Shown here one piece after another: positions 1,880 through 19,364 of a stretch of DNA of 23,122 nt. The DNA lies in IMG/VR virus record IMGVR_UViG_2690316210_000010, positions 1 through 23,122 of that record; one strand, 5' to 3'. Under the pieces are notes generated by a model that was not told the DNA's origin, made no database searches, and saw only the letters and a list, made by a program, of their open reading frames with translations. Position 1 is the first letter of the stretch, and each line of letters starts with the position of its first letter. A program made the position numbers and the translations under genes. This stretch comes from a virus (taxonomy: Duplodnaviria; Heunggongvirae; Uroviricota; Caudoviricetes).

Positions 1880-2517
1880 GGTGATGCTGCCAACTTACTG
1901 ATTTAGTGTATGATGGTGTTTTTGAGGTGCTCCAGTGGCTTCTGTTTCTATCAGCTGTCCCTCCTGTTCAGCTACTGACGGGGTGGTGCGTAACGGCAAA
2001 AGCACTGCCGGACATCAGCGCTATCTCTGCTCTCACTGCCGTAAAACATGGCAACTGCAGTTCACTTACACCGCTTCTCAACCCGGTACGCACCAGAAAA
2101 TCATTGATATGGCCATGAATGGCGTTGGATGCCGGGCAACTGCACGCATTATGGGCGTTGGCCTCAACACGATTTTACGTCACTTAAAAAACTCAGGCCG
2201 CAGTCGGTAACCTCGCGCATACAGCCGGGCAGTGACGTCATCGTCTGCGCGGAAATGGACGAACAGTGGGGCTATGTCGGGGCTAAATCGCGCCAGCGCT
2301 GGCTGTTTTACGCGTATGACAGTCTCCGGAAGACGGTTGTTGCGCACGTATTCGGTGAACGCACTATGGCGACGCTGGGGCGTCTTATGAGCCTGCTGTC
2401 ACCCTTTGACGTGGTGATATGGATGACGGATGGCTGGCCGCTGTATGAATCCCGCCTGAAGGGAAAGCTGCACGTAATCAGCAAGCGATATACGCAGCGA
2501 ATTGAGCGGCATAACCT
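1880..2517 (+). mobile_element. IS1, 3'-truncated (left inverted repeat through mid-insB)
   Basis: Begins with the IS1 terminal repeat GGTGATGCTGCCAACTTACTGATTTAGTGTATGATGG; insA and insB recognisable; IS1 sequence stops after ...GAGCGGCATAACCT, where IS3-family sequence takes over. Confidence 0.85.
1935..2210 (+). CDS. insA: IS1 InsA
   Basis: 91-aa translation [42 protein letters not shown]... matches IS1 InsA. Confidence 0.9.
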
Positions 2518-2701
2518 TTTAGGACAATGGGTTACCGCCGCCAGAAAAGGGCTCGGTACTCCTGGTTCCCGCACGGTGGCTGAACTGGAATCTGAAATTC
2601 TGCAACTGCGTAAGGCGTTAAATGAAGCTCGCCTTGAGCGAGATATATTAAAAAAAGCAACAGCGTATTTTGCACAGGAGTCGCTGAAAAATACGCGTTA
2701 A
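2129..2701 (+). pseudogene. insB: Chimeric ORF: IS1 InsB (first ~129 aa) fused in frame to the C-terminal ~60 aa of an IS3-family OrfA
   Basis: Translation follows InsB up to ...[14 protein letters not shown], then continues [60 protein letters not shown], a typical IS3-family OrfA C-terminus. Confidence 0.75.
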
Positions 2702-3598
2702 TCGAACAATGGCGACAACAATTTCCCATTGAAGCGATGTGTCAGGTATTTGGTGTATCCAGGAGCGGTTATTACAACTGGGTACAGCATGAACCCTCAG
2801 ACAGAAAACAAAGTGATGAGCGGCTAAAACTGGAGATTAAGGTGGCACATATCCGCACTCGCGAAACATATGGAACCCGGCGGCTCCAGACGGAGCTGGC
2901 AGAGAATGGCATCATCGTTGGTCGTGACCGACTGGCACGTCTTCGTAAGGAGCTAAGGCTACGCTGTAAGCAGAAACGCAAGTTCAGAGCGACTACGAAC
3001 TCGAACCACAATCTGCCAGTTGCGCCAAATCTGCTGAACCAGACGTTCGCTCCTACAGCACCAAATCAGGTCTGGGTGGCGGACCTGACGTATGTTGCCA
3101 CACAGGAGGGATGGTTGTACCTCGCTGGCATCAAAGATGTTTATACGTGCGAAATTGTCGGCTACGCCATGGGAGAGCGCATGACAAAAGAGCTGACAGG
3201 TAAAGCCCTGTTTATGGCGCTCAGGAGCCAGCGCCCACCTGCCGGGCTAATCCACCACTCTGATCGAGGTTCACAGTACTGCGCATACGATTACCGGGTC
3301 ATACAGGAGCAGTCTGGTCTGAAAACATCAATGTCGCGTAAAGGTAACTGTTACGACAACGCTCCGATGGAAAGCTTCTGGGGAACGCTGAAAAATGAGA
3401 GCCTGAGCCACTATCGTTTTAATAACCGGGATGAAGCCATCTCAGTAATACGGGAATACATTGAGATTTTCTACAATCGTCAGCGTCGTCACTCTCGTCT
3501 GGGGAATATCTCCCCGGCAGCCTTCAGGGAAAAATATCATCAGATGGCTGCTTAAAAAAAGAACAAATGGTAGTGTCCGCTATTGCCAGTACACCTCA
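2518..3598 (+). mobile_element. IS3-family element (IS600/IS911-like), 5'-truncated, right end intact
   Basis: OrfA C-terminus, A-run slippery motif near 2647-2656, OrfB in the -1 frame, and a right end ...GTACACCTCA consistent with an IS3-family terminal CA. Exact IS name not verified. Confidence 0.7.
2737..3555 (+). CDS. IS3-family transposase OrfB (DDE catalytic domain); coordinates are the first in-frame ATG, natively expressed by -1 frameshift from OrfA
   Basis: 272-aa translation with DDE-transposase hallmarks (...WVADLTYV..., ...HHSDRGSQYCA..., ...CYDNAPMESFWGTLK...). Confidence 0.8.
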   Translation: MCQVFGVSRSGYYNWVQHEPSDRKQSDERLKLEIKVAHIRTRETYGTRRLQTELAENGIIVGRDRLARLRKELRLRCKQKRKFRATTNSNHNLPVAPNLLNQTFAPTAPNQVWVADLTYVATQEGWLYLAGIKDVYTCEIVGYAMGERMTKELTGKALFMALRSQRPPAGLIHHSDRGSQYCAYDYRVIQEQSGLKTSMSRKGNCYDNAPMESFWGTLKNESLSHYRFNNRDEAISVIREYIEIFYNRQRRHSRLGNISPAAFREKYHQMAA

Positions 3599-3895
3599 AA
3601 GGTGCAGGTGCACTATAATTCCACCCGTTCTGGTTTTCAATAGCTACATTCAACATTTTCTCTTTCCTTTCATCACCGAAGTGAACTTTGTTGATGCGGT
3701 GCCTGGTGCCTCCAGGTGACGTTAACCAGTTAACAATTAACGCCGGATACAGGGAAACCCATAACCACCCGATACGGGGGAACTAATCGCTTTTTAACTG
3801 TGCCGCGTGCGCTGAGCCGCATTCACCGCATCACAAAATTCACTTTAAAAAGGGCGGACATCAGCCAGCAATGAAACTGATGCCGCCAAAGGTAC
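3599..3895. repeat. Direct repeat copy 2 (dicF-dicB intergenic region plus DicF-like gene), abutting the IS3-family right end
   Basis: Aligns with 1513-1810; starts immediately after the IS3-family terminus. Confidence 0.8.
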
Positions 3896-3902
3896 CAATC
3901 AA
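3847..3902 (-). ncRNA. DicF-family sRNA variant (P1)
   Basis: Minus strand reads UUGGUACCUUUGGCGGCAUCAGUUUCAUUGCUGGCUGAUGUCCGCCCUUUUU: DicF-like terminator and U-tail with a divergent 5' region. Ends approximate. Confidence 0.4.
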
Positions 3903-4087
3903 CATGGAGTGTTGTGGCGTGGTTGTCACTTAAGCGTATGGTCAACCTGACAACCCGGTGTCCTCAACGGGGAAGGAATAACTCCGCCATACTTACCGCC
4001 GCGTCATTTCGCGTTGTGTGCCTGCTTTTAACCACGTCAGGCGAGGTGGTATCCTTCTTATCCCGAATAACCAAGAAGGAAATCTAT

Positions 4088-4288
4088 ATGACTAAAGAAG
4101 AATTTGTCTCTTATATTTTTGATAAAACGGTTGAAATGTATGCCGCTACTTACGGGTCCTGTAATCCTCTGAATAAACCAGAGGGAAAAGATGATTTCGA
4201 CAAAATTTACCGCTTCTTGGAGGACCGCTATATCAAAAGCTTAGAGGACGCAGGGATCAAATCCCCAGTGAAGTCACCATTGTCCTGA
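4088..4288 (+). CDS. Hypothetical small protein (66 aa) in the variable cassette, antisense to the dicB operon
   Basis: ATG at 4088 with AAGGA Shine-Dalgarno; 3' end overlaps the convergent gene 4257..4634 by 32 nt; no homolog recognised; P2 has an unrelated gene at the same position. Confidence 0.4.
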   Translation: MTKEEFVSYIFDKTVEMYAATYGSCNPLNKPEGKDDFDKIYRFLEDRYIKSLEDAGIKSPVKSPLS

Positions 4289-4634
4289 GAACTTGCAGAA
4301 CGTCATGATCATAACTTCCATCCAAACCGCGACGGCGAATTGCTTCTCGTATTACCGGAAGCAGTTCGCTGGAAATCTCGGTGCATATTTCACCTGATAA
4401 TACGCTTGGCTCAAGTGAGAATATTGGTGAACTTACGGTCTTGGTCTCGACAGTTTCAGAGTCAGTGCCAACATTATAAAGCTCAACGAAAGCGGTCTTG
4501 ATTTTCCGGGCCAGATCTTTTGCTGGCTCGCTTGCAATATCTTTCCCGATTTCTCGCAGCACAGAATGCAATGTATGAGCTGCTGTTTTCTGTACATCAG
4601 ACGGTAAATCTTTAAATTCCATCGTCAGCCTCAT
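4257..4634 (-). CDS. Hypothetical protein (125 aa), variable-cassette gene translationally coupled to the ydfA-like gene
   Basis: Start ATG overlaps the upstream stop (TGATG); first 11 aa MRLTMEFKDLP are identical to the P2 gene 10374..10787, after which the proteins are unrelated. Confidence 0.5.
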   Translation of the reverse strand: MRLTMEFKDLPSDVQKTAAHTLHSVLREIGKDIASEPAKDLARKIKTAFVELYNVGTDSETVETKTVSSPIFSLEPSVLSGEICTEISSELLPVIREAIRRRGLDGSYDHDVLQVLRTMVTSLGI

Positions 4635-4786
4635 CAGTCAGTGTTTCTGGCTAACCAGCAACGCGCGCCAGATTCGGTTTTAAACGTTTTGCTTTTGGTA
4701 TACGTCATGGCGGTAAACGTTCCATCCTGGTTAGGGAACACGCCGCACACCAGAGATTCGTTGTTGCCAAGATCGATAGTATCCAT
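4634..4786 (-). CDS. YdfA/YdaF-like small protein (~50 aa)
   Basis: MDTIDLGNNESLVCGVFPNQDGTFTAMTYTKSKTFKTE... with GAGG Shine-Dalgarno; first gene after the repressor-side promoter, as ydfA/ydaF in Qin/Rac; near-identical paralog at 10787..10939. Confidence 0.6.
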   Translation of the reverse strand: MDTIDLGNNESLVCGVFPNQDGTFTAMTYTKSKTFKTESGARCWLARNTD

Positions 4787-4966
4787 GCTGACCTCATTTC
4801 CCCTTAACGCCGGGGTGGCGGAACAAAAAACCTGCTGCATAGTTAAAGATTGAACCCTGCCGTCATGTTCTTACGCCTCGGGCTGGCTACTTAACCCCTG
4901 ACCACTGTCTGGTAACTCGAAGTATTGCCCTGCATTCTGTGGGGCGGGGTGGGTTGACGCCTGAAA

Positions 4967-5008
4967 CAATAGCATCATTATTTTTTGATGTAAATAGCAT
5001 CGCTATTG
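4967..5008. promoter_or_regulatory. Operator-like inverted repeats (OL-like) of the P1 immunity region
   Basis: AATAGCATCGCTATT (perfect inverted repeat) and a degenerate copy AATAGCATCATTATT; same motif recurs beside the repressor start at 6103-6143. Confidence 0.45.
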
Positions 5009-5024
5009 TTTTTGTTGGGGCAAG

Positions 5025-5050
5025 AAAAAACCACCCTAAGGTGGTTCTGT
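5025..5050 (-). terminator. Rho-independent terminator after the repressor-antitoxin-toxin operon
   Basis: Minus strand reads AACCACC-TTAG-GGTGGTT followed by TTTTTT, just downstream of the ParE-like gene. Confidence 0.6.
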
Positions 5051-5062
5051 CGGCGGGAATAA

Positions 5063-5353
5063 TTAACTGTTTTTGCCTGGATACTGTCTTCGAGAATGCA
5101 CAATATTTACTACTTCTATGCTTGATGCTGTTACTCGGTAAAGGATGATGTAGTTAGGATGAGTTACAATTTCACGAAGACCAAGAACTCGCTCGCTTGG
5201 AGGATACAGGTAAGGATGCTCTGTGAGCGGCAAAACGGATGTTTCAATTCGAATTTTCATTCTGCGTGCTGCCGCGGGATTTTCTTTAGCTATGTAGGCT
5301 ACGATCTGGCGCAAATCATCACGAGCAGATGGTAGCCATAAAACGGGTAACAT
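5063..5353 (-). CDS. ParE/RelE-superfamily type II toxin
   Basis: 96-aa translation MLPVLWLPSARDDLRQIVAYIAKENPAAARRMKIRIE...YIILYRVTASSIEVVNIVHSRRQYP fits the ParE pattern; start overlaps the upstream antitoxin stop (TAATG). Confidence 0.7.
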   Translation of the reverse strand: MLPVLWLPSARDDLRQIVAYIAKENPAAARRMKIRIETSVLPLTEHPYLYPPSERVLGLREIVTHPNYIILYRVTASSIEVVNIVHSRRQYPGKNS

Positions 5354-5547
5354 TATTCACCTCTGTGAGTTGCAGCAGCAATTTGGGCAATAATTTGTTC
5401 CATTTCCGCCATTACCTCATCATGCGGAATCGCCGGGCGGGGATCCGCGAGGCTTGCTGCTACTTTGGCCCGCAGCCATTCGTTGTAACTATTTTCTTGC
5501 TCAACTGTCTCAAATTCTGAAACCATTGGGGAAAGGACTGTACTCAT
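5353..5547 (-). CDS. Type II antitoxin (ParD/CC2985-like) paired with the ParE-like toxin
   Basis: 64-aa acidic protein ...YNEWLRAKVAASLADPRPAIPHDEVMAEMEQII...; AGGAG Shine-Dalgarno; translationally coupled upstream of the toxin. Confidence 0.55.
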   Translation of the reverse strand: MSTVLSPMVSEFETVEQENSYNEWLRAKVAASLADPRPAIPHDEVMAEMEQIIAQIAAATHRGE

Positions 5548-5566
5548 TTTACATATCTCCTCTGAT

Positions 5567-6067
5567 TTAGGCGCGACGGCCTTTTTGTGCAGCTAACCAC
5601 CGCGCAACCGTACGATCCATTGATTCTTTTTTATCTTTCATCTCCTGAAGCATGTGTTCTTGATCTTCTTTCGGAAAAGCTCTGAACGTATGGATTAAAT
5701 CTCGTTCCATCGGCTCTACGGCAAACGGTAGTTCATCCTCTGTTTGTTCTGTGTCTGCTGGTAATGCGACTATGTTATCTTGCTGTGGTTCTCGACAATA
5801 CATCCTTGCAATTTGCAGCAAATCTACCATGTCTGGCCTGATTGACTCAGGGGGAACTTTCAGTAAGCCAGCAAACTTTAGTACAGCCTCAAGGTTTAGT
5901 GGGGTTTGACCATTTAGGTAGTGACTTACCGCCCCTTGTGTTGAAAACCCCATAATTTCCGCCGCACGTTCCTGAGTCAATCCCAACTGAGATTTCTTTG
6001 CCATCCAGATTTCTTTCAGTCTTCTGGCGGCGTTGAGGTCGGTGTCTGACAATGATTTTCTTTTCAT
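5567..6067 (-). CDS. CI-like HTH repressor without a recognisable S24 peptidase domain
   Basis: Start chosen at MKRKSLSDTDLNAARRLKEIWMAKKSQLGLTQERAAEIMGF..., which resembles the lambda CI N-terminal domain; the C-terminus shows no Ser/Lys peptidase motif; divergent from the Cro-like gene. Confidence 0.7.
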   Translation of the reverse strand: MKRKSLSDTDLNAARRLKEIWMAKKSQLGLTQERAAEIMGFSTQGAVSHYLNGQTPLNLEAVLKFAGLLKVPPESIRPDMVDLLQIARMYCREPQQDNIVALPADTEQTEDELPFAVEPMERDLIHTFRAFPKEDQEHMLQEMKDKKESMDRTVARWLAAQKGRRA

Positions 6068-6080
6068 ACATCCAATTCTA

Positions 6081-6146
6081 ATAAGATTGCTAATCACTTT
6101 GAAATAGCATCACTATTTACTTTTAAAAATAACAGTGCTATTAATT
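6081..6146. promoter_or_regulatory. OR-like operator/promoter region between the divergent repressor and Cro-like genes (P1)
   Basis: Operator repeats AATAGCATCACTATT (6103-6117) and AATAACAGTGCTATT (6129-6143); candidate rightward promoter -35 TTTACT (6116-6121), 17-bp spacer, -10 TATTAA (6139-6144). Confidence 0.45.
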
Positions 6147-6178
6147 ATGCATTGGTAACACATCACATAGGGCGGATT

Positions 6179-6442
6179 ATGAATCTTGGAGAATATTTGC
6201 ATCATTTTCATATAACCCAGAGTTCATTTGCTGAGATTGTTGGCGCATCCCAAGGGATGGTCAGCCACGTTATAACGGGGCGTGCAAAACTTACAGGAGA
6301 AAAAATATTACGTTGGTGTGAAGCAACGGGATGGGTGGTGACCCCACATGAGATTGACAGTAAAACCTACCCCAACCCAACTGACGGCTTGCCTGCTGAG
6401 TTTCAGGCTAACACACAACCATCGGCGGGGGTTGATTCATGA
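6179..6442 (+). CDS. Cro/YdaS-like HTH regulator
   Basis: MNLGEYLHHFHITQSSFAEIVGASQGMVSHVITGRAKLTGEKILRWCEATGW...; divergent from the repressor; stop overlaps the next gene start. Confidence 0.6.
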   Translation: MNLGEYLHHFHITQSSFAEIVGASQGMVSHVITGRAKLTGEKILRWCEATGWVVTPHEIDSKTYPNPTDGLPAEFQANTQPSAGVDS

Positions 6443-6864
6443 AAATCAAGCATGAACACATCCGCATGGCGATGAAAGCCTGGGCGCATCCGGACGGTGA
6501 AAAAGTTCCGGCAGCTGAAATAACCAGGGTTTATTTCGAACTGGGAATGACGTTTCCGGTTCTGCATAACGACAGCAAGCACAACACGCTTTATCTCAAC
6601 ACCCAAAAGATTTTCCGTTGGCTGGATAAAGACACCCCTGACGCTGTTGAAAAAATTCAGGCGTTGTTACCTGCGATCGAAAGGGCAATGCCACCTCCGC
6701 TGGTGGCTCGAATGCGCAGCCACAGTTCAGCTTATTTTCGGGAACTGGTGGAGACGCATGAACGACTGGTGAGAGACGCTGATGATTTTGTCGCAGTGGC
6801 AATCGCCGGTTTCAATCAGATGAACCGTGGTGGCCCGGCAGGAAATGCTGTGGCAGTACATTGA
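6439..6864 (+). CDS. YdaT-like protein (141 aa)
   Basis: MKIKHEHIRMAMKAWAHPDGEK...; position after the Cro/YdaS-like gene and length match Rac YdaT; paralog at 11990..12415. Confidence 0.6.
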   Translation: MKIKHEHIRMAMKAWAHPDGEKVPAAEITRVYFELGMTFPVLHNDSKHNTLYLNTQKIFRWLDKDTPDAVEKIQALLPAIERAMPPPLVARMRSHSSAYFRELVETHERLVRDADDFVAVAIAGFNQMNRGGPAGNAVAVH

Positions 6865-6935
6865 CTGACAATAGCCATATCGAATCGCTCCCGGCAACTC
6901 GTGAGTAAAAAGATTCGGTATCAGAAGAGGTGAGT

Positions 6936-7976
6936 ATGGCTAACGCCTGGCTCAGATTATGGCATGACATGCCAAATGACCCTAAGTGGCGAACAATTGC
7001 CAGGGTGTCAGGGCAGCCAATTGCAACAGTGATGGCAGTGTATATCCACCTCCTGGTGAGCGCGTCACGAAATGTCACGCGAGGTCACATTGATGTCACG
7101 ACAGAAGATTTGGCAAGTGCGCTCGACGTGACAGAAGAGGTAATTGATTCAATTTTGCAGACGATGCAGGGGCGGGTACTTGATGGTGATTTAATCACTG
7201 GATGGGAAAAACGCCAGGTGCTTAAAGAGGACAACGGCAATATTTCGCAAACCGCAAAATCTCCTGCAGAGCGCAAGAGGGCGCAGCGAGAGAGGGAAAG
7301 AAAGCGGGAACAAAATGGCGATTGTCACGGCGCGTCACGAAATGTCACGCACATGTCACGACGAGTCACGACAGATACAGATAAAGATACAGATAAAGAA
7401 GATCAAAACACTATGGTCCATGGCGTAAAAAACGCCACGAACCAGGCAGGGGATGTTCAGACCGTCAATCCTGGTCAGCCAGCAGGCTCGACACCGGAAG
7501 CCGATTCGGGCGCTGTGCAGCAGGTGATGACCGCAAGGCCGGAGCAATCACTCCAACTGCAGCAGCCTGAAGCCGATTCCGCCATTCAGCGGGAAGCCGA
7601 TCGGGTAGCCCCGGAAAACACCGGGCAGCCTGTGGGACGAGTGGATTATCCGGATGTGTTCGAACAGGTCTGGCGGGAATACCCGTTGCGTGCCGGGGCA
7701 AACCCGAAGAAATCCGCATTCAGTGCCTGGAAGGCCAGATTGCGCGAGGGGGTGCCACCAGAGACCATGCTGGATGGTGTGAGGCGTTACGCGAGATACC
7801 TGGCGGCGACCGGGAAAGCGGGAACGGAATTTGTTCAGCGAGCGACGACGTTTTTTGGGCCGGACCGGAATTTTGAAAACCCCTGGTTGCTCCCGGTAAG
7901 CGGCACGAACAACCAGCGTTGTGTGAATCATATTTCTGAACCGGATACCGAAATTCCGCCGGGATTCAGGGGGTGA
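6936..7976 (+). CDS. Replication initiator (lambda O / YdaU-like) with embedded origin iterons
   Basis: ATG 6936 with GAGG Shine-Dalgarno; precedes the DnaC-like gene; contains GTCACG iteron arrays; C-terminal 20 aa identical to the otherwise unrelated P2 initiator. Confidence 0.6.
   Translation: MANAWLRLWHDMPNDPKWRTIARVSGQPIATVMAVYIHLLVSASRNVTRGHIDVTTEDLASALDVTEEVIDSILQTMQGRVLDGDLITGWEKRQVLKEDNGNISQTAKSPAERKRAQRERERKREQNGDCHGASRNVTHMSRRVTTDTDKDTDKEDQNTMVHGVKNATNQAGDVQTVNPGQPAGSTPEADSGAVQQVMTARPEQSLQLQQPEADSAIQREADRVAPENTGQPVGRVDYPDVFEQVWREYPLRAGANPKKSAFSAWKARLREGVPPETMLDGVRRYARYLAATGKAGTEFVQRATTFFGPDRNFENPWLLPVSGTNNQRCVNHISEPDTEIPPGFRG
7061..7099. repeat. Iteron set 1: four GTCAC(G) repeats at 10-11-bp phasing inside the O-like gene
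   Basis: GTCAC at 7064, 7074, 7084 and 7095. Confidence 0.6.
7324..7410. repeat. Iteron set 2: five GTCACG repeats at 10-11-bp phasing followed by an AT-rich tract; putative replication origin
   Basis: GTCACG at 7324, 7334, 7344, 7355 and 7365, then ATACAGATAAAGATACAGATAAAGAAGATCAAAACA. Confidence 0.6.
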
Positions 7977-7982
7977 TGTGGC

Positions 7983-8729
7983 ATGAAAAACATTGCGGCA
8001 GCCGGGGTTCTTGAACGTATTCACAGACTTGCACCACAGGGGGCGGTTCCACCGTACCGGACGGTGGAGGAGTGGCGGGAATGGCAACTTGCTGAAGGAC
8101 GAAAACGCAGCGAGGAGATTAACCGCCAGAATCGCCAGTTGCGGGTGGAAAAAATCCTGAATCGTTCGGGCATCCAGCCTCTGCACAGCAAATGCTCGTT
8201 TGCGAATTATCAGGTGCAGAACGACGGGCAAAAATACGCGCTGAGCCAGGCCAAATCCATAGCTGACGAACTGATGACCGGGTGCACGAATTTTGTGTTC
8301 AGCGGTAAAACCGGCACCGGGAAAAATCACCTTGCAGCGGCGATGGGTAACTGGCTGATGGCGAAGGGGCGCAGCGTGATTATCGTCACCGTGTCTGATG
8401 TCATGAGCGTGTTGCATGACAGCTACGACAACGGCAAATCCGGTGAAAAATTTTTACAGGAGCTTTGCGGGGTTGATTTGCTGGTCCTGGATGAAATAGG
8501 CATTCAGCGGGAGACGAAAAACGAGCAGGTGGTATTGCACCAGATAATTGATCGCCGGACAGCATCACTGTGCAGTGTCGGGATGTTAACAAACCTGAAT
8601 CATGCCGCAATGAGTACGCTTCTTGGTGAGAGGATTATGGACCGCATGACCATGAACGGTGGTCGATGGGTGACGTTTAACTGGGATAGCTGGCGTTCAA
8701 ATGTCAGCTTTCCGGGAGTTGTGAAGTAA
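7983..8729 (+). CDS. DnaC-like AAA+ helicase loader (YdaV-like, 248 aa)
   Basis: Walker A FSGKTGTGKNHLAAAMG and Walker B DLLVLDEIG; about 97% identical at protein level to 13407..14153. Confidence 0.8.
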   Translation: MKNIAAAGVLERIHRLAPQGAVPPYRTVEEWREWQLAEGRKRSEEINRQNRQLRVEKILNRSGIQPLHSKCSFANYQVQNDGQKYALSQAKSIADELMTGCTNFVFSGKTGTGKNHLAAAMGNWLMAKGRSVIIVTVSDVMSVLHDSYDNGKSGEKFLQELCGVDLLVLDEIGIQRETKNEQVVLHQIIDRRTASLCSVGMLTNLNHAAMSTLLGERIMDRMTMNGGRWVTFNWDSWRSNVSFPGVVK

Positions 8730-9095
8730 TTTTTGTTGAACCATGACAGCGTTCTGTACTTCAGGGGCCAGCTTGTCAAAAGTGACGTTCATCGGATCTG
8801 ATTCAGTCTCAACCGGGACAAAGGAAGCAGACTCCTCATCCCAGCGGTTTTCCTGCATATATTCAGCATCCCAGGAATCGAGGGCAGGGCGGGGTATACC
8901 GGGTTTATCCTCGCAAACAAGAAATTTATAAGCGCAGTCCTGAGCTGCAGGGAATTGCTCCAGAAATTGCCAATGAAATTTTGCGCGTGCGCGACGCTCA
9001 TCACCGGCTTCAATGGCAGTGGCCACCGCAACAGCGCTATCTTCTTTTATGGCCTGTTCATCAGGAATAGCAGCGCAAATAAAGACCTTACTCAT
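8697..9095 (-). CDS. Prophage early-left-operon hypothetical protein (132 aa), possibly YdfE-like by position; 3' end overlaps the P1 DnaC-like gene
   Basis: Minus-strand ORF MSKVFICAAIPDEQAIKEDSAVAVATAIEAGDERRARAKFHWQFLEQFPAAQD...; last ~11 codons lie antisense inside the DnaC-like 3' end, so the C-terminus may be junction-derived. Confidence 0.5.
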   Translation of the reverse strand: MSKVFICAAIPDEQAIKEDSAVAVATAIEAGDERRARAKFHWQFLEQFPAAQDCAYKFLVCEDKPGIPRPALDSWDAEYMQENRWDEESASFVPVETESDPMNVTFDKLAPEVQNAVMVQQKLLHNSRKADI

Positions 9096-9564: not shown

Positions 9565-9742
9565 TATCGCGTCCTCAACAATGAATTTTGTGATGCAGTG
9601 CCTGGTGCCTCCAGGTGACGTTAACCAGTTAACAATTAACGCCGGGTTAGTTGATGCTCGTTACGCCCGTAAAATACCGCCTTACTGCTTTAACTGTTCC
9701 GCGTGCGCATAGCCGCATTCACCGCATCACAAAATTCACTTT

Positions 9743-9800
9743 AAAAAGGGCGGCAGAGCAGTCACGGAGTAAAACTGATACCGCCAAATGTCACCAGAAA
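9743..9800 (-). ncRNA. dicF: DicF sRNA (canonical-type)
   Basis: Minus strand reads UUUCUGGUGACAUUUGGCGGUAUCAGUUUUACUCCGUGACUGCUCUGCCGCCCUUUUU, matching my recollection of E. coli DicF apart from about one base; located between the ydfA-like/variable genes and dicB as in Qin. Confidence 0.8.
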
Positions 9801-10135
9801 ATTGATAACAGAGGGCGTTGTAGCGGGGTTGTCACTTAAGCGTATGGTCAACCTGACAACCCGGTGCATTTTCTGGAGCAATGGAGGAAACCCCAGCCAT
9901 ACTTACCGCCGCGCCATTTCGCGGAGTGCCACAACCGGAAGCGCACGGTCGAACTAAATTTAACGACACCGTACAGAGAGACCAATTTCGCCGTGCGCTT
10001 TCGCGTTATGCCCTGACTTTTCAGGGACATATCCTTTCAGTAAGCTGTCAGTGCCGGATGCTCACCCGTGTCCGGCGCACGCACTCCACCTGACCCGTGG
10101 AGAACTCCTTAATTACCAACCCTCAGGAGGGTGAA

Positions 10136-10414
10136 ATGGATAAAAAGCAAATTGAGGCCCTGCAATCTATTATTGAAGAACAAGATGAAGCTATCAGGAT
10201 TCTTTCATATCGCACTGATATGATACTAAATATGCTTTCTGCATTAACGGCTGCGCTTGGTGGTACAAAAACAAACGTATACCGCGAAGTTGTTATTCAA
10301 CAGATAGATAAATTTGAAAAAACCATACCAGGTATTAATGCTCATCTTGCAGAACAAGAGAAAGACCATGCTCTTATGGCAATTTCTTCAGTAGCTCTCC
10401 CGAAAGTTGAGTAG
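10136..10414 (+). CDS. Hypothetical protein (92 aa) in the P2 variable cassette, antisense to the dicB operon
   Basis: ATG 10136 with AGGAGG Shine-Dalgarno; MDKKQIEALQSIIEEQDEAIRILSYRTD...; unrelated to the P1 gene at 4088..4288; 3' end overlaps the convergent gene by 41 nt. Confidence 0.4.
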   Translation: MDKKQIEALQSIIEEQDEAIRILSYRTDMILNMLSALTAALGGTKTNVYREVVIQQIDKFEKTIPGINAHLAEQEKDHALMAISSVALPKVE

Positions 10415-10787
10415 TTTTAATTGTTGTTTTGAAATAATCACTGCTTTCACATTTGAGTGATTTCATGGCAATCCAAATGCGGGCCTCTGTGCCTGCATTT
10501 GGTTCCAGTTGCTGTAGACGTTTTGCGTCTTCCAAAAGTAAGGCGATAATGTGTTTCAGCTTCTCATCATTTGCTTGATTCTTGTTTTCAGGCGAATTCT
10601 GTCCGCCGAATAGGCGCTTCTCTTCATACAGACCTATAAAGGCACGACGCACGTTACCGGATATAGTATCGATGGTTTCCTTTTCTACGGTACTCAGGTC
10701 AAGAGTCGCCAGTTGAGAGCGAACCACATTCGATGCCATTTCCTGGAATGGTACTGGTAAATCTTTAAATTCCATCGTCAACCTCAT
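10374..10787 (-). CDS. Hypothetical protein (137 aa), P2 variable-cassette gene coupled to the ydfA-like gene
   Basis: Shares only MRLTMEFKDLP with the P1 gene 4257..4634, then diverges completely; start overlaps the upstream stop. Confidence 0.5.
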   Translation of the reverse strand: MRLTMEFKDLPVPFQEMASNVVRSQLATLDLSTVEKETIDTISGNVRRAFIGLYEEKRLFGGQNSPENKNQANDEKLKHIIALLLEDAKRLQQLEPNAGTEARIWIAMKSLKCESSDYFKTTIKTTQLSGELLKKLP

Positions 10788-10939
10788 CAGTCAGTGTTTC
10801 TGGTTAACCAGCGACGCGCGCCAGCTTCAGTTTTAAACGTTTTGCTTCTGGTATACGTCATCGCGGTGAACGTACCGTCCTGGTTGGGGAACACGCCACA
10901 TACCAGAGATTCGCTGTTGCCAAGATCGATAGTATCCAT
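10787..10939 (-). CDS. YdfA/YdaF-like small protein
   Basis: MDTIDLGNSESLVCGVFPNQDGTFTAMTYTRSKTFKTEAGARRWLTRNTD; near-identical to 4634..4786. Confidence 0.6.
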   Translation of the reverse strand: MDTIDLGNSESLVCGVFPNQDGTFTAMTYTRSKTFKTEAGARRWLTRNTD

Positions 10940-11124
10940 GCTGACCTCATTTCCCCTTAACGCCGGGGTAGCGGAACAAAAACCTGCTGCATAGTTATTA
11001 AAGTTGAACCCTGCCGTCATGTTCTTACGCCTCGGGCTGGCTACTTAACCCCTGACCACTGCCTGGTAACTCGAAGTATTGCCCTGCATTCTGTGGGGCG
11101 GGGTGGGTTGGTATGAAAAGAAGG

Positions 11125-11167
11125 ATACCCATAGGTATTTAAAAAGTAAATACCCATGGGTAAATTT
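11125..11167. promoter_or_regulatory. OL-like operators with candidate leftward early promoter (P2)
   Basis: Palindromes ATACCCATAGGTAT (11125-11138) and TACCCATGGGTA (11151-11162); on the minus strand a TTTACC / 16-17 bp / TTAAAT promoter-like arrangement overlaps them. Confidence 0.45.
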
Positions 11168-11204
11168 TTGCGGTGTCTTAACTGGTGACTAGTTGTTTGG
11201 TGAG

Positions 11205-11624
11205 CTATGATGCGTTTTGTGCTTTCTTTTTACGGATTTCTTCGTAGATCATATTGTAATACTGTTTTTTCTCTTCAAGAGTTTTTAATAATTTATCCGC
11301 TTCACTTTCTGGCAGTTCGTCTAAGAGATCTAAAAAAATACGTTGTCGTGGCGTTAGAACCCTTGTTTCATAACTGGAGGCTGTGTTCGTTGATGATGAA
11401 ACGATACCATCCATCCATCCCCGGGGTAACCCAAAGGACTCTTCGATAATCTCCACCATATCATCAGCGATCCGTTTTTTTCCCTTTTTCCCCTCTGGGT
11501 ACAACATTCTTGATACATAAGAAGGCTCGCGCCCGATCTTTCTGGCCACGTTAACCGCTTTACCATCGCATTTCTCATCACGAATTTTGATGAGTTGCTG
11601 TCGTCTAAATTCATATTTGTCCAT
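11205..11624 (-). CDS. HTH repressor of the P2 immunity region (RacR/DicA-like position)
   Basis: Start chosen at MDKYEFRRQQLIKIRDEKCDGKAVNVARKIGREPSYVSRML... (HTH); divergent from the Cro-like gene; flanked by operator-like repeats. Confidence 0.6.
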   Translation of the reverse strand: MDKYEFRRQQLIKIRDEKCDGKAVNVARKIGREPSYVSRMLYPEGKKGKKRIADDMVEIIEESFGLPRGWMDGIVSSSTNTASSYETRVLTPRQRIFLDLLDELPESEADKLLKTLEEKKQYYNMIYEEIRKKKAQNAS

Positions 11625-11701
11625 AGGTAAATAATAGATGCGATTACCGCAAGGTAAACAACCTGTGGGTATTGACATTTGTTTACCTGTGGGTATTCTT
11701 T
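11623..11701. promoter_or_regulatory. OR-like operators and candidate rightward promoter for the P2 Cro-like gene
   Basis: Repeated TGGGTA-containing half-sites (ACCTGTGGGTAT twice, CATAGGTAAAT); -35 TTGACA (11673-11678), 16-bp spacer, -10 TATTCT (11695-11700). Confidence 0.45.
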
Positions 11702-11724
11702 GCTGTGTTTACTAAGGAGTAGCT

Positions 11725-12006
11725 ATGGAAGAATTAAGAATATTTCTCAATTCTCTTTCGTCAGATGAACAGCGTATGTTTGCATGCGAGTGTGGTACCA
11801 GCATCGGTTATCTAAGAAAGGCATTGAGTAAAGGTCAAGTGTTAGGGGCATCGTTATGTGTCCTTATTGAGCGAGCCAGTAATGGTGAAGTTACACGTCA
11901 GCAACTAAGGCCTTTTGATTGGATGAATATTTGGCCCGAGCTGGAAGATACCAAAACGTTAACACAACCACTTTCTAGGAGCTTGATTCATGAAAATCAA
12001 GCATGA
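11725..12006 (+). CDS. Cro/YdaS-like HTH regulator (P2)
   Basis: AAGGAG Shine-Dalgarno; ...ECGTSIGYLRKALSKGQ...TRQQLRPFDW...; 3' end overlaps the YdaT-like start. Confidence 0.6.
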   Translation: MEELRIFLNSLSSDEQRMFACECGTSIGYLRKALSKGQVLGASLCVLIERASNGEVTRQQLRPFDWMNIWPELEDTKTLTQPLSRSLIHENQA

Positions 12007-12415
12007 ACACATCCGCATGGCGATGAATGCCTGGGCGCGTCCTGATGGCGAAAAAGTTCCAGCAGCTGGAATAACCCAGGCTTATTTTGAGTTGGGTATG
12101 ACGTTCCCAGAACTGTATGACGACAGCCATCCGGAAGCCCTGGCTCGCAATACCCAGAAAATTTTCCGCTGGGTAGAGAAAGACACCCCTGATGCTGTTG
12201 AAAAAATGCAGGCTCTGTTACCGGCGATCGAAAAGGCGATGCCGCCTTTGCTGGTGGCCCGTATGCGCAGCCACAGTTCTGAATATTACCGTGAGATCGT
12301 CGAACGGAGGGATCGGCTGGTGAAGGATGTCGATGATTTTGTTGCGTCAGCGGTTGTTTTGTATGACCAGATGAATCGCGGCGGCCCGGCAGGGAATGCT
12401 GTGGTGATGCACTAA
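11990..12415 (+). CDS. YdaT-like protein (141 aa, P2)
   Basis: MKIKHEHIRMAMNAWARPDGEK...; paralog of 6439..6864. Confidence 0.6.
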   Translation: MKIKHEHIRMAMNAWARPDGEKVPAAGITQAYFELGMTFPELYDDSHPEALARNTQKIFRWVEKDTPDAVEKMQALLPAIEKAMPPLLVARMRSHSSEYYREIVERRDRLVKDVDDFVASAVVLYDQMNRGGPAGNAVVMH

Positions 12416-12437
12416 AAGCACGGTGTTCGGGGGTTTT

Positions 12438-13400
12438 ATGAGCAGCAAGCTTCATGGTCTTGTCTGGGAAGGGTGCGCCTTCACCGGCATGATCTTATCC
12501 AGGGTGGCGGTTATGGCCCGTCTTGCAGACTACAGCAATGACGAGGGCGTGTCATGGCCTGCCATTGAAACTATCCGGCGTCAGATCGGTGCAAGAAGTG
12601 AATCCACAGTGAAATCGGCTATTGCAGAACTGGCGAAAGAGGGCTGGCTGACGAAGGAAGAGCGTAAGGTCGGTGGGCGTAATGTAAGCAATATCTATCG
12701 GCTTAATGTGGAAAAACTCGAAGCAGCTGCGGCGGCGGCGCGTGAGTCATATAAACCGAAAAGAAAAATTAGCCCGGCAAAAAATGACCCGTTAACAGTT
12801 GACCCGTCAAATATTGACCCCTCAACGGTTGACCCGTCAAATTTTGATGGATCAACTGTTGATAAAAAACTGCCGATTAGGGGGGCGATGATTGACCCCG
12901 ATCCGTCAGTATTAAAACCTGATCCGTCAGATAAAAGATCTTCTTGTCCGGACGCTTCGCAACCGGACCCGCAGACGGCTGAACAGGATTTTTTAACCCG
13001 ACACCCTGACGCGGTTGTGTTCAGTGCGAAAAAACGCCAGTGGGGAAGTCAGGAAGATTTGGTGTGCGCACAGTGGATCTGGGGACGAATCGTGAGTCTT
13101 TACGAGCAGGCGGCCAGCTATGATGGCGAGATCACTAGACCGAAAGAACCCAACTGGACAGCATGGGCCAATGACGTTCGCACAATGCGGATGCTGGATG
13201 GCAGAACTCACAGACAAATTTGTGAAATGTTTGGGCGTCTCCAGCGGGATTCGTTCTGGGTAAAAAACATCATGAGTCCGGCAAAACTCCGGGAAAAATG
13301 GGATGAACTGGTTATCCGCCTGGGGCGTTCGCCTGCGCAGCGTTGCGTGAATCACATTTCTGAACCGGACACTGAAATACCGCCGGGATTCAGGGGGTGA
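12438..13400 (+). CDS. Replication initiator (lambda O-like) with an N-terminal winged-helix domain and embedded iterons
   Basis: ATG 12438; N-terminal HTH-like region (...VSWPAIETIRRQIGARSESTVKSAIAELAKEGWL...); TTGACCCGTCAA iterons in a linker; last 20 aa identical to the P1 initiator. Confidence 0.6.
   Translation: MSSKLHGLVWEGCAFTGMILSRVAVMARLADYSNDEGVSWPAIETIRRQIGARSESTVKSAIAELAKEGWLTKEERKVGGRNVSNIYRLNVEKLEAAAAAARESYKPKRKISPAKNDPLTVDPSNIDPSTVDPSNFDGSTVDKKLPIRGAMIDPDPSVLKPDPSDKRSSCPDASQPDPQTAEQDFLTRHPDAVVFSAKKRQWGSQEDLVCAQWIWGRIVSLYEQAASYDGEITRPKEPNWTAWANDVRTMRMLDGRTHRQICEMFGRLQRDSFWVKNIMSPAKLREKWDELVIRLGRSPAQRCVNHISEPDTEIPPGFRG
12783..12860. repeat. Origin iterons: four to five TTGACCCGTCAA-like repeats at 15-bp spacing inside the P2 O-like gene
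   Basis: TGACCCGTTAAC (12783), TTGACCCGTCAA (12798), TTGACCCCTCAA (12813), TTGACCCGTCAA (12828), then a degenerate TTGATGGATCAA. Confidence 0.6.
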
Positions 13401-13406
13401 CGTGTC

Positions 13407-14153
13407 ATGAAAAACATTGCGGCAGTTGGGGTTCTTGAACGTATTCGCAGACTTGCACCACAGGGGTCGGTTCCACCGTACCGGACGGTGGAGGAGTGGC
13501 GGGAATGGCAACTTGCTGAAGGACGAAAACGCAGCGAGGAGATTAACCGCCAGAATCGCCAGTTGCGGGTGGAAAAAATCCTGAATCGTTCGGGCATCCA
13601 GCCTCTGCACAGCAAATGCTCGTTTGCAAATTATCAGGTGCAGAACGACGGGCAAAAATACGCGCTGAGCCAGGCCAAATCCATAGCTGACGAACTGATG
13701 ACCGGGTGCACGAATTTTGTGTTCAGCGGTAAAACCGGCACCGGGAAAAATCACCTTGCAGCGGCGATGGGCAACCGGCTGATGGTGAAGGGGCGCAGCG
13801 TGATTATCGTCACCGTGTCTGACGTCATGAGCGTGTTGCATGACAGCTACGACAACGGCAAATCCGGTGAAAAATTTTTACAGGAGCTTTGCGGGGTTGA
13901 TTTGCTGGTCCTGGATGAAATAGGCGTTCAGCGGGAGACGAAAAACGAGCAGGTGGTATTGCACCAGATAATTGATCGCCGGACAGCATCACTGTGCAGT
14001 GTCGGGATGTTAACAAACCTGAATCATGCCGCAATGAGTACGCTTCTTGGTGAGAGGATTATGGACCGCATGACCATGAACGGTGGTCGATGGGTGACGT
14101 TTAACTGGGATAGCTGGCGTCCAAATGTCAGCAATATGAGGGTTGTGAAGTAA
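13407..14153 (+). CDS. DnaC-like AAA+ helicase loader (YdaV-like, P2)
   Basis: Walker A and B motifs; near-identical to 7983..8729. Confidence 0.8.
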   Translation: MKNIAAVGVLERIRRLAPQGSVPPYRTVEEWREWQLAEGRKRSEEINRQNRQLRVEKILNRSGIQPLHSKCSFANYQVQNDGQKYALSQAKSIADELMTGCTNFVFSGKTGTGKNHLAAAMGNRLMVKGRSVIIVTVSDVMSVLHDSYDNGKSGEKFLQELCGVDLLVLDEIGVQRETKNEQVVLHQIIDRRTASLCSVGMLTNLNHAAMSTLLGERIMDRMTMNGGRWVTFNWDSWRPNVSNMRVVK

Positions 14154-16226: not shown

Positions 16227-16453
16227 TTTTATGGGGCACCTTTCTGATTGATTTCATATTGGCGAGGTAAGTAGAATGACTGCGGGTGCTTGAGGCTATC
16301 TGCTTCAGGCATGAACACCAAAAGGCAGATAGAGAAAAGCCCCAGTTAACATTACGCGTCCGGCAAGACGCTTAACATTAATCTGAGGCCAATTTCATGC
16401 TTTGCACATGTAGGTTAGCCTCTTACATGCCGAAAGGCAAGGAGAAGCAGGCT

Positions 16454-16609
16454 ATGAAGCAGCAAAAGGCGATGTTAATCGCCCTGATCGTCATCTGTTT
16501 AACCGTCATAGTGACGGCACTGGTAACGAGGAAAGACCTCTGTGAGGTACGAATCCGAACCGGCCAGACGGAGGTCGCTGTCTTCGTAGACTACGAATCC
16601 AGGAAGTAA
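16454..16609 (+). CDS. hokD: Hok-family type I toxin (HokD/RelF-like); overlapping upstream Mok-like frame begins at 16397
   Basis: MKQQKAMLIALIVICLTVIVTALVTRKDLCEVRIRTGQTEVAVF... matches Hok/RelF; GGAG Shine-Dalgarno. Confidence 0.75.
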   Translation: MKQQKAMLIALIVICLTVIVTALVTRKDLCEVRIRTGQTEVAVFVDYESRK

Positions 16610-17146: not shown

Positions 17147-17184
17147 ACTCCTGCTGTGTAACACCGTGCCACCGGAGAAAGCCG

Positions 17185-17784
17185 ATGGCACATATACAAC
17201 TGGTCAAACAAACCTCTTCCGGATTACTTCTCCCGGCGACGCCGGAGAGTTGCGATTTTCTGCATCAAATCAAAATAGGTGAGTGGATACACGCAGACTT
17301 TAAGCGTGTGTGTAACTACGCATTCCACAAGCGTTTTTTCAAACTCCTGCAACTGGGTTTCGATTACTGGACTCCGGTCGGTGGGGCGATCACGCCTCGC
17401 GAACGAAAACTGGTGTCCGGTTTCGTTGATTACCTGTGTGAATCAGTAGGCCGGGAACATACGCCAGCTCTGAGCGAAGCCGCAGAGCAATATCTGAATA
17501 CAGTTGCGACACGCAGAACCAGTGATACGGCATTGCTAAAGTCGTTTGAGGCTTTCCGCGAGTGGGTAGCCATTCAGGCCGGATTTTACACCGAGCATTT
17601 TTATCCGGACGGTAGCCGTGGGTGTCGGGCGAAATCTATCGCGTTTGCGAATATGGACGAAACCGAGTTTCAGCAGGTTTATAAATCTGTTCTGAATGTG
17701 CTGTGGAACTGGATTCTGTTCCGTAAATTTTCCTCTCCGGAACAAGTCGAAAATGTGGCCGCGCAGCTGCTGGAGTTTGCGTAA
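17185..17784 (+). CDS. DUF1367-like prophage protein, tandem copy A
   Basis: GGAG Shine-Dalgarno; MAHIQLVKQTSSGLLLPATPESCDFLHQIK...; stop overlaps the next gene start (TAATG). Family assignment from memory. Confidence 0.55.
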   Translation: MAHIQLVKQTSSGLLLPATPESCDFLHQIKIGEWIHADFKRVCNYAFHKRFFKLLQLGFDYWTPVGGAITPRERKLVSGFVDYLCESVGREHTPALSEAAEQYLNTVATRRTSDTALLKSFEAFREWVAIQAGFYTEHFYPDGSRGCRAKSIAFANMDETEFQQVYKSVLNVLWNWILFRKFSSPEQVENVAAQLLEFA

Positions 17785-18074
17785 TGGTGGATTTACGTAA
17801 AGCGGCGCGGGGGCAGATGTGCACCGTCAGAATTCCTGGCTACTGCAATCACGATCCGGAAACGTCTGTGCTGGCGCATTACCGACTGGCGGGAACGTGC
17901 GGAACAGCGATAAAGCCACACGATATGCAGGCAGCGATTGCCTGTAGCTCGTGCCACGATTTAATCGACGGGCGGGTAAAAACCAGCGATTACACCAAAG
18001 AAGAATTACGCCTGATGCATGCAGAAGGTGTTTTTCGCACACAAGAAATCTGGAGAAAGGAGGGATATTTATGA
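17784..18074 (+). CDS. YbcO-like (DUF1364) zinc-binding protein, copy A
   Basis: 96 aa with four paired Cys (C..C...C..C) and position before Q as in DLP12 ybcO; identical in copies B and C. Confidence 0.55.
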
Positions 18075-18448
18075 TTTACCCAACGAATACAGGAAAAAGC
18101 GGAGAACACCTTCGTCTCACCACGCTGGAAAGTGTCTGGATTCAGGGAAAACTACGTATGTGGGGGCGCTGGTCGTATATTGGTGGCGGTAAGACGGGGA
18201 ATATGTTTAACCTGATGTTGACCTCTAAAAAGCTGACAAAAACGGCAATTAACGAGGCGCTCCGGAGGATGAAAAAAGCAGGTCTGAACAAGTCTGAACT
18301 TGCTGCCGCCATGAAGCAGATTAAAGAACTCCAGCGCCTGCTCGGCAAGAAAACGATGGAAAATGAACTCCTCAAAGAAGCCGTTGAATATGGACGGGCA
18401 AAAAAGTGGATAGCGCACGCGCCCTTATTGCCCGGGGATGGGGAGTAA
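18071..18448 (+). pseudogene. Truncated Q-like antiterminator (first ~74 aa) fused in frame to the C-terminal part of IS2 InsC
   Basis: [16 protein letters not shown]...NKSEL, then [48 protein letters not shown] (IS2 InsC C-terminus); junction at the shared 10-mer TCTGAACTTG (18293-18302). Confidence 0.75.
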
Positions 18449-19322
18449 GCTTAGTCAGCCGTTGTCTCCGGGTGTCGCGTGCGCAGTTGCACGTCATTCT
18501 CAGACGAACCGATGACTGGATGGATGGCCGCCGCAGTCGTCACACTGATGATACGGATGTGCTTCTCCGTATACACCATGTTATCGGAGAGCTGCCCACG
18601 TATGGTTATCGTCGGGTATGGGCGCTGCTTCGCAGACAGGCAGAACTTGATGGTATGCCTGCGATCAATGCCAAACGTGTTTACCGGATCATGCGCCAGA
18701 ATGCGCTGTTGCTTGAGCGAAAACCTGCTGTACCGCCATCGAAACGGGCACATACAGGCAGAGTGGCCGTGAAAGAAAGCAATCAGCGATGGTGCTCTGA
18801 CGGGTTCGAGTTCTGCTGTGATAACGGAGAGAGACTGCGTGTCACGTTCGCGCTGGACTGCTGTGATCGTGAGGCACTGCACTGGGCGGTGACTACCGGC
18901 GGCTTCAACAGTGAAACAGTACAGGACGTCATGCTGGGAGCGGTGGAACGCCGCTTCGGCAACGATCTTCCGTCGTCTCCAGTGGAGTGGCTGACGGATA
19001 ATGGTTCATGCTACCGGGCTAATGAAACACGCCAGTTCGCCCGGATGTTGGGACTTGAACCGAAGAACACGGCGGTGCGGAGTCCGGAGAGTAACGGAAT
19101 AGCAGAGAGCTTCGTGAAAACGATAAAGCGTGACTACATCAGTATCATGCCCAAACCAGACGGGTTAACGGCAGCAAAGAACCTTGCAGAGGCGTTCGAG
19201 CATTATAACGAATGGCATCCGCATAGTGCGCTGGGTTATCGCTCGCCACGGGAATATCTGCGGCAGCGGGCTTGTAATGGGTTAAGTGATAACAGATGTC
19301 TGGAAATATAGGGGCAAATCCA
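18293..19322 (+). mobile_element. IS2, 5'-truncated (mid-insC to right end ...GGGGCAAATCCA)
   Basis: insC 3' part, insD and the right terminus are recognisable; the left ~300 bp of IS2 is absent. Confidence 0.85.
18406..19311 (+). CDS. insD: IS2 transposase InsD (natively expressed as an InsCD frameshift product)
   Basis: 301-aa translation ...[32 protein letters not shown]... with DDE motifs. Confidence 0.85.
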
Positions 19323-19364
19323 ACGGGCTGAACACCCATTCTACTGCGCCAGCGGAGAACTACG

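Follow-up and report, generated by a model that had tools for sequence, protein, structure and literature searches.

Small genes opposed to early-left genes are known from the Rac and e14 prophages of Escherichia coli K-12. In Rac, racR, ydaG and ydaF (DUF1391) are convergent on sieB, which is followed by the small RNA kilS and by kilR; in e14, ymfK and ymfJ are convergent on ymfI. The ydaF/sieB and ymfJ/ymfI pairs are among 165 convergent excludons identified from MG1655 RNA sequencing (PMC12288877, Table 1), and ymfJ showed strong late induction (log2 fold change of 4.8) during the SOS response, with far smaller changes in ymfI (PMC11002266). Genes antisense to prophage lytic operons are typical lysogen-expressed accessory loci (PMC7067206). 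In the Qin prophage the gene order is ydfA-ydfB-ydfC-dicF-dicB, and the dicBF literature mentions non-conserved genes around dicF without analysis (PMC5069750). The present analysis concerns the corresponding slot, between a ydfA-like gene and dicF, in a 23,122-nucleotide (nt) stretch of Caudoviricetes DNA (IMG/VR record IMGVR_UViG_2690316210_000010, positions 1 to 23,122; hereafter, the window). The window contains two tandem immunity/replication regions, P1 (~3800-8730) and P2 (~9700-14150), which are either adjacent prophages or parts of a recombinant prophage. In P2 the slot carries a plus-strand gene for a protein of 92 amino acids (aa) and a convergent minus-strand gene of 137 aa. To our knowledge, no previous study has characterised the genes that lie between ydfA and dicF.

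Judged from sequence comparison, the slot is where DicA/RacR-type lambdoid prophages swap genes within the early-left operon; it lies between a DUF1391 gene and a DicF/KilS-type small RNA, at the position held by sieB in Rac and by ymfI in e14. The P2 slot comprises two modules: an early-left (lytic) gene in which a family-specific N-terminal domain, termed MEFKDLP, is fused to a YmfJ-like domain, and a 92-aa gene, probably of moron type, seated on a conserved upstream platform antisense to the dicF leader. The reading favoured here, with moderate confidence, makes the plus gene an accessory gene akin to a moron: it would be transcribed from this platform in the lysogen and silenced on induction, and its protein product would serve the lysogen.

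The plus-strand open reading frame (ORF) and its AGGAGG Shine-Dalgarno sequence were confirmed as first annotated, and the ORF is a real gene, under purifying selection at the protein level. Informative pairwise comparisons with Salmonella and other prophage homologues gave ratios of nonsynonymous to synonymous substitution (dN/dS) of 0.08-0.28, a clear signal of purifying selection that runs counter to the possibility, raised in the initial annotation, that the ORF is not translated. Salmonella homologues were 72-82% identical to the 92-aa protein, and a second E. coli subfamily was 26-28% identical across the full length. More distant members of the family were 90-93 aa long; conservation spanned the full length of the protein in homologues at 26-45% identity, and 11 residues were invariant across the family. 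An exhaustive profile search of 1.84 billion representative proteins returned only 19 relatives. The AlphaFold2 model (predicted local distance difference test score, pLDDT, 80) was a soluble three-helix protein and no membrane segment was found (maximum 19-residue hydropathy 0.93); the earlier description as coiled-coil-like was roughly right. No family at threshold was found for the protein in Pfam, PADLOC or NCBIfam, its PHROG family carried no function, and a fold search of the model against PDB and BFVD gave no significant match. A literature search by RefSeq protein accession returned nothing on the slot proteins.

The ~100 nt upstream of the plus gene were conserved across loci and contained two hairpins (H1 and H2) and the Shine-Dalgarno sequence. 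The minimum free energy fold of the plus strand at 10046-10150 had an energy of -38.9 kcal/mol (z=-3.69; 0 of 200 shuffled sequences as stable), compared with z=-0.69 for the minus strand of the same region. The H1 stem included three G-U pairs, which are A-C mismatches on the opposite strand, and H1 was kept in 22 sequence variants. The H2 stem was kept across differing sequences, namely CCCAAC/GUUGGG in locus L090 and CCACACG/CGUGUUGG in loci L089, L093 and L078. As the H2 variants paired in different registers, a column-wise count of covariation was abandoned and each variant was folded on both strands instead; the plus-strand fold was the more stable in 10 of 12 variants. A promoter-like site was present 91-98 nt upstream in L036, K-12 and L086 as well as in P2. 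In non-homologous sequence, L089 (TTAATA-17-TAAAAT) and L090 (TATTAT with TG) carried a promoter-like site at that distance, giving six sequences in all at ~95 nt. No CTGT-N8-ACAG LexA box was seen upstream by eye (no formal scan was made), and the idea of an SOS-controlled antirepressor was dropped.

The context from the Shine-Dalgarno sequence to the ATG was conserved ahead of several unrelated ORFs. At least six unrelated small ORFs (57-100 aa) started at the platform ATG, 54-61 nt after H1: members of the 92-aa family and ORFs of 64, 57, 73, 69, and 100 aa, the last of which (L078) belonged to the YmfI family. P1 had a related platform of the e14/Rac/L091 type, with an H1-like hairpin followed by TGGTATCCT. 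The platform was partly kept in slot type B, which has no plus-strand ORF. In K-12 Qin (L002), TTTTCA-17-TAAACT and both hairpins were found antisense to the ydfC-dicF leader with no plus-strand ORF after them; this platform predicts an antisense transcript into ydfC.

The 92-aa family was found in five contexts, each adjoining an immunity region and always opposed to early-left transcription: E. coli type A, E. coli type F (L036), Salmonella (L086-L089), a Cox/Int element (L090), and a cI/S24 lambdoid prophage (L091). The gene opposite differed among them. In L036 it encoded a type-B C-terminus; in Salmonella, where neither ydfA nor an Rfam-recognised DicF was nearby, a 93-aa homologue faced a stand-alone 71-aa YmfJ-like gene; in L090 the partner was a 214-aa helix-turn-helix gene; and in L091 there was no overlapping partner. 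Read by eye, the L091 homologue looks like a self-contained unit, with an extended -10 element and with a terminator-like stem-loop ahead of a run of T. Conversely, the same 137-aa gene stood opposite a different plus gene of 57 aa in L093 (STEC2017-197), and the YmfJ-like gene of Shiga toxin (Stx) phage 75/02 had no convergent partner.

In P2 the minus gene ends inside the plus gene, with its final 13 codons and stop read antisense to the plus-gene 3' end. The same 41-nt overlap occurred in Salmonella L086-L089 and in L090, accompanying three different minus-strand genes. In L093, only the last ~50 nt of the 92-aa gene remained, and these were kept because they encode the tail of the minus gene. 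A protein tail of the form LS.ELLKK.. recurred in three unrelated minus genes; it was rejected as a common functional motif because it arises from antisense reading of the stretch that encodes the conserved plus-gene C-terminus.

Several mosaic joints were located in the slot. Within the minus gene they fell at about codon 11 (P1 against P2), at about codon 32 (P0096), and near codon 57, where the N-domain gives way to the variable C-terminus; types A, B, F and G shared one N-domain allele. The plus gene had a joint exactly at its ATG and others towards its 3' end: in L090, homology to P2 stopped exactly at the plus gene stop codon, and in L093 the 3' joint lay ~40-50 nt inside the plus gene, at the stop of the minus gene. 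The initial annotation had placed one recombination boundary just inside the minus coding region of a variable slot; joints inside the coding sequence are indeed present, and they are several rather than one. It had also described a two-gene cassette, a term that does not fit, as the minus-gene C-domain assorts independently of the plus gene. We conclude from these comparisons that the plus and minus genes behave as two separate modules that often travel together and form no obligate pair.

The minus-strand protein of P2 is a fusion, in which a low-complexity linker joins a MEFKDLP N-domain to a YmfJ-like domain. The 137-aa frame holds as an ORF convergent with the plus gene, and its first ATG overlaps the stop of the DUF1391 gene, as had been noted; the second ATG (MEFKDL, 133 aa, 10374-10775) is the start used by the Prokaryotic Genome Annotation Pipeline (PGAP) and also the point from which the PHROG profiles match. 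PHROG families 1363, 6937, 2151, and 9419 matched only residues 5-66, and residues 73-118 matched a separate PHROG set. The statement that only the first 11 residues are common to the P1 gene applies to DNA, in which near-identity ends at about codon 11; it is wrong for the protein, where 54 residues aligned at 37% identity (E=8e-9) with the same PHROG N-terminal families (residues 5-59). Elsewhere, the MEFKDLP N-domain was linked in other prophages to many different C-termini, and one relative combined a different N-domain allele with a P2-type C-terminus.

The YmfJ-like domain was identical to the N-terminus of K-12 e14 YmfJ at 30 of 40 positions (75%; BLASTP, E=3e-20), and the conserved YmfJ N-terminal motif LKH[VI]IALLLEDAKRLQQ.EPNAGTEARI was present. 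In P2 this motif starts at residue 73, behind the 57-residue MEFKDLP domain and the linker, which indicates a fusion containing a YmfJ-like domain and not a stand-alone YmfJ. A tblastn search matched the equivalent genes of phiES15, pAEv1818 and Stx phages, and the domain formed a stand-alone early-left gene in Cronobacter phiES15, Aeromonas pAEv1818, Stx phage 75/02, and Salmonella prophages. In AR_0013, e14, phiES15, pAEv1818, and the Salmonella loci, YmfJ-family genes were among the first early-left genes downstream of the repressor. The alternative that the minus gene is a known conserved early gene holds for its C-domain, through the e14 YmfJ family. For this C-domain, dN/dS against Salmonella was 0.18-0.54. 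No informative family emerged for the 137-aa protein from Pfam, PHROGs, PADLOC, or NCBIfam (PHROG membership was without function), and PADLOC returned only a chance-level HerA match (E=0.022). Its AlphaFold2 model, helical and with a disordered linker, was too poor for a fold search (pLDDT 57). The most conserved YmfJ motif, EPNAGTEARIW (10473-10502 in the window, and homologues), is encoded by an inverted repeat, CCAAATGC...GCATTTGG, with nearly identical DNA in E. coli, Salmonella, Cronobacter, and Aeromonas phages. An RNA element at this repeat was rejected because sequence variants disrupted pairs with no compensation. In phiES15 (L084, 3244-3531, minus strand), an unannotated 95-aa YmfI-family ORF is convergent on gp10 (YmfJ-like) with a 30-nt overlap. 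It has an annotated homologue in gp19 of Aeromonas phage pAEv1818, itself the YmfI-family partner of that phage's YmfJ-like gene.

The slot was as variable between P1 and P2 as the initial annotation had proposed: the two plus-strand proteins gave no BLASTP alignment, and 57 loci with both ydfA and dicF had at least 12 types of slot content. The majority of the 57 carried a co-directional MEFKDLP gene with a variable C-terminus, and many also had a convergent gene with a 3' end overlapping it. Lengths of the minus and plus gene products were 137 and 92 aa in P2, 125 and 66 aa in P1, and 116 and 64 aa in L008. Other combinations were 216 aa with a hydrophobic peptide of 36 aa (L042), 110 aa with a 91-aa member of the 92-aa family (L036, type F), and 128 aa with a membrane protein of 148 aa (L027). 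Type B had no convergent gene, and in K-12 Qin ydfB and ydfC took the place of the P2-type genes. The flanks of the slot (the dicBF/kil region) were present in 4602 of 5426 complete E. coli genomes (~85%), often in several copies, and the 92-aa gene was present in 127 of the 5426. The 1.4-kb P2 slot stretch had 100% identical copies in many E. coli chromosomes; the copy in AR_0013 lay inside a lambdoid prophage adjoining ompW, where PGAP listed both slot ORFs as hypothetical proteins. By DNA alignment, the variable DNA of P2 relative to K-12 starts at ~10120. A DicA/RacR-type repressor gene follows to the right of the ydfA-like gene. Feature coordinates are given in Table 1.

Table 1. Features of the P2 slot and its flanks, in window coordinates.
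Feature	Position	Strand	Remarks
DicF small RNA	9748..9799	-	Left, downstream flank of slot; Rfam RF00039, 77 bits, E=1e-15, full-length
dicF leader, conserved	9800..10122	-	~320 nt; in K-12 Qin too; three-way P2/P1/K-12 DNA alignment and upstream-region alignment
Candidate sigma-70 promoter, TTTTCA-17-TAAGCT	10018..10046	+	Predicted; weak, 7/12 consensus positions; best position weight matrix hit, ~95 nt upstream of ATG; antisense to dicF leader
Hairpin H1 (GUGCCGGAUGC / GUGUCCGGCGC)	10051..10078	+	In presumed 5' untranslated region of plus gene
Hairpin H2 (CUCCAC ... GUGGAG)	10084..10102	+	Stem kept across differing sequences
Shine-Dalgarno sequence AGGAGG of plus gene	10125..10130	+	5 nt ahead of ATG; direct sequence reading
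92-aa gene, MDKKQIEALQ...	10136..10414	+	PGAP WP_000358769.1; phrog_18692
3' overlap of convergent genes	10374..10414	both	41 nt
Minus ORF, whole	10374..10787	-	137 aa from first ATG; 133 aa from PGAP start at 10775 (WP_001339605.1)
YmfJ-like domain, residues 73-112, KLKHIIALLLEDAKRLQQLEPNAGTEARIWIA	10452..10571	-	BLASTP against K-12 e14 YmfJ
Low-complexity linker	10572..10616	-	After N-domain
MEFKDLP N-domain, residues 5-57	10617..10775	-	Homologous to P1 gene; PHROG matches
ydfA-like DUF1391 gene	10787..10939	-	Right, upstream flank of slot; Pfam PF07151, E=6.6e-27; PGAP 'DUF1391 family protein'

Under the favoured reading, the early-left promoter would be repressed in the lysogen and the plus gene would be transcribed from its own promoter. 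On induction, strong leftward transcription would collide head-on with transcription of the plus gene, and the overlapping 3' ends would form double-stranded RNA, making expression of the two genes mutually exclusive in the manner of a convergent excludon. Transcription of the plus gene in the repressed prophage is probable by analogy with sieB and ymfI, which are transcribed in K-12. The cargo protein would most likely act for the lysogen, through superinfection exclusion, anti-phage defence or host modulation; exclusion or defence is the default guess because SieB holds this position in Rac.

Several observations weigh against this reading. The candidate promoter of P2 matched the consensus at only 7 of 12 positions and was missed by a stricter consensus scan, and no intrinsic terminator was predicted after the plus gene (10414). 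The minus-strand fold was slightly better in 2 of the 12 platform variants. K-12 Qin, which has no plus ORF, likewise retains H1, H2, and the promoter-like site, so the platform may instead have its role in the minus-strand dicF precursor. Neither by sequence nor by fold did the 92-aa protein match a known defence, exclusion or toxin family. A tblastn search of 50,697 deposited phage genomes found no homologue, and the family is so far known from prophages only.

Other explanations of the plus gene were weighed against the favoured one. The absence of any Pfam or defence-family match and the tiny size of the family would suit a chance open frame, a reading that is effectively refuted by the dN/dS values, the full-length homologues with their invariant residues, the strong Shine-Dalgarno sequence, the confident AlphaFold2 model, and retention of the gene in five genomic contexts. 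The two genes might instead form a functional pair, in which the 92-aa protein binds and neutralises, or regulates, the YmfJ-like early protein and the convergent overlap couples their expression. The overlap is kept between E. coli and Salmonella despite 26-40% protein divergence, YmfJ-family genes are often opposed by a small convergent gene (e14 ymfI, phiES15, pAEv1818), and the 92-aa protein has a faint RelB-like match (E=0.014), which at 15.6 bits is far below the 50-bit cut-off. This pairing is nonetheless quite improbable: the 92-aa family has non-YmfJ partners (L036, L090) or no overlapping partner (L091), the 137-aa gene has another plus gene in L093, the YmfJ-like gene of Stx phage 75/02 stands without one, the overlap goes with the plus gene regardless of the gene opposite, and no toxin or antitoxin family was found at threshold.

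Two further readings were each considered unlikely. One holds that antisense transcription itself is conserved, with a promoter in the dicF leader stopping leaky early-left transcripts from reaching the toxic dicF, dicB, and kil, and with the small ORFs as interchangeable, largely incidental cargo. It would account for the very different ORFs on one platform and for the platform of K-12 Qin and, in part, of type B, which lack such an ORF; DicF and DicB are highly toxic when expressed (PMC5069750), and the K-12 equivalents are recorded as excludons. The cargo ORF, however, is under strong purifying selection, which indicates that the protein matters, and a role in the minus-strand dicF precursor would explain conservation of the K-12 platform equally well. 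The other has the plus gene act during the lytic cycle or in the choice between lysis and lysogeny, its product being perhaps an early anti-defence or regulatory protein. The gene lies inside the early region and adjoins the immunity module. Many phage early host-takeover and anti-defence proteins are small and soluble, as the 92-aa protein is, and many different small proteins at one site, as in this slot, is also the pattern of anti-defence loci. The plus gene is nevertheless oriented against the only strong early promoter on that side, which would mean head-on transcription during lytic growth; SieB, at the equivalent position, is named a superinfection-exclusion protein in its database record; and the family was missing from the deposited phage genomes searched.

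The reading of the plus gene as a lysogen-expressed accessory gene can be extended, tentatively, to the slot as a whole. It is possible, though we hold it as doubtful, that the platform with its two hairpins, antisense to the dicF/kilS leader, forms a dedicated and conserved expression site in which unrelated small ORFs are swapped, the 5' joint falling exactly on the start codon and the 3' joint on or close to the stop codon, that its cargo consists of lysogen-expressed exclusion, defence or host-control proteins, and that convergent transcription also gates leaky expression of dicF, dicB and kil.

Several observations were made elsewhere in the window. The small RNA downstream of the P1 slot (~3830-3895, minus strand) was a diverged DicF relative below the Rfam gathering score; its sequence (GGCGGCATCAGTTT...GGCTGATGTCCGCCCTTTTT) resembled K-12 Rac KilS, and a similar variant was present in Salmonella L086 (~3715-3775). 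Directly to the left of this region, IS3-family transposase-like ORFs of 190 and 272 aa were recognised by eye at 1900-3555; they presumably truncate the P1 early-left operon. Between the P1 ydfA-like gene and the repressor (5063-5547, minus strand), overlapping ORFs of 96 and 64 aa look like a ParE/RelE-type toxin and antitoxin. Rfam matches included C4 antisense RNA and isrK at 1331-1519 (minus strand) and sok antitoxin RNA at 16284-16459 (plus strand), adjoining a hok-like gene. A unit of ~2.18 kb, carrying repeated ORFs of 96 and 199 aa, occurred in three tandem copies at 17163-23122 (95-100% identity, spacing 2180-2181 nt). None of the complete E. coli genomes contained the whole window contiguously, and the best match covered 45%.

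The main interest of the locus lies in the common platform and in the small ORFs that are exchanged on it. At least six of these, unrelated to one another, were found at the sieB/ymfI position, and the slot provides a concrete and testable list of candidate prophage accessory proteins. In addition, K-12 YmfJ gains a wider family context, and prophage immunity regions yield further natural candidates for convergent excludon pairs. The P2 slot is a useful, if ordinary, illustration of how prophages swap accessory genes at one site. Both genes had been annotated before as hypothetical proteins and belong to PHROG families, and K-12 counterparts of the architecture have been characterised.

Among the K-12 prophages, Rac resembles P2 in the placement of sieB on the opposite strand between a DUF1391 gene and a DicF/KilS-type small RNA, in a 3' end that overlaps an early-left gene, and in an H1-like hairpin upstream. 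It differs in an overlap of 4 nt rather than 41 nt and in having no MEFKDLP/YmfJ fusion gene. SieB (162 aa), which we take to be a membrane protein, has no similarity to the soluble three-helix 92-aa protein; genomic position matches, and neither sequence, fold nor a membrane segment places the 92-aa protein with SieB. In e14, as in P2, the 3' ends of the convergent genes overlap (by 63 nt in e14) and YmfJ is the first early-left gene after the repressor and is opposed by a small gene; unlike in P2, YmfJ stands alone, YmfI (113 aa) is unrelated to the 92-aa protein, and neither ydfA nor dicF is present. K-12 Qin has flanks identical to those of P2 (ydfA, the dicF leader with H1 and H2, and dicF), whereas its slot holds the co-directional ydfB and ydfC, which are unrelated to the P2 genes, and no opposite-strand ORF.

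With regard to described classes of gene arrangement, the P2 genes differ from type II toxin-antitoxin systems: they are convergent and not a co-directional operon, belong to no such family at threshold, and have partners that assort independently. For a convergent excludon, which requires convergent transcription units with overlapping 3' ends, the observation in P2 is a 41-nt overlap of the coding regions. There is a likeness to morons and prophage accessory loci such as ST64B STMMW_20121 and BTP1 bstA (PMC7067206), which share with the P2 plus gene a small size, an antisense orientation to a lytic operon, and a position next to the immunity region. Like a moron, the gene is patchy in distribution, as reflected in the genome counts and the five contexts; it occurs in only some related prophages, moves as a unit, and in its L091 copy has promoter-like and terminator-like sites of its own. 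It differs from morons in that no terminator was found in P2 and the promoter is only predicted. The exchange of unrelated ORFs on one conserved 5' platform, with a joint exactly at the ATG, lies outside the classical description of a moron.

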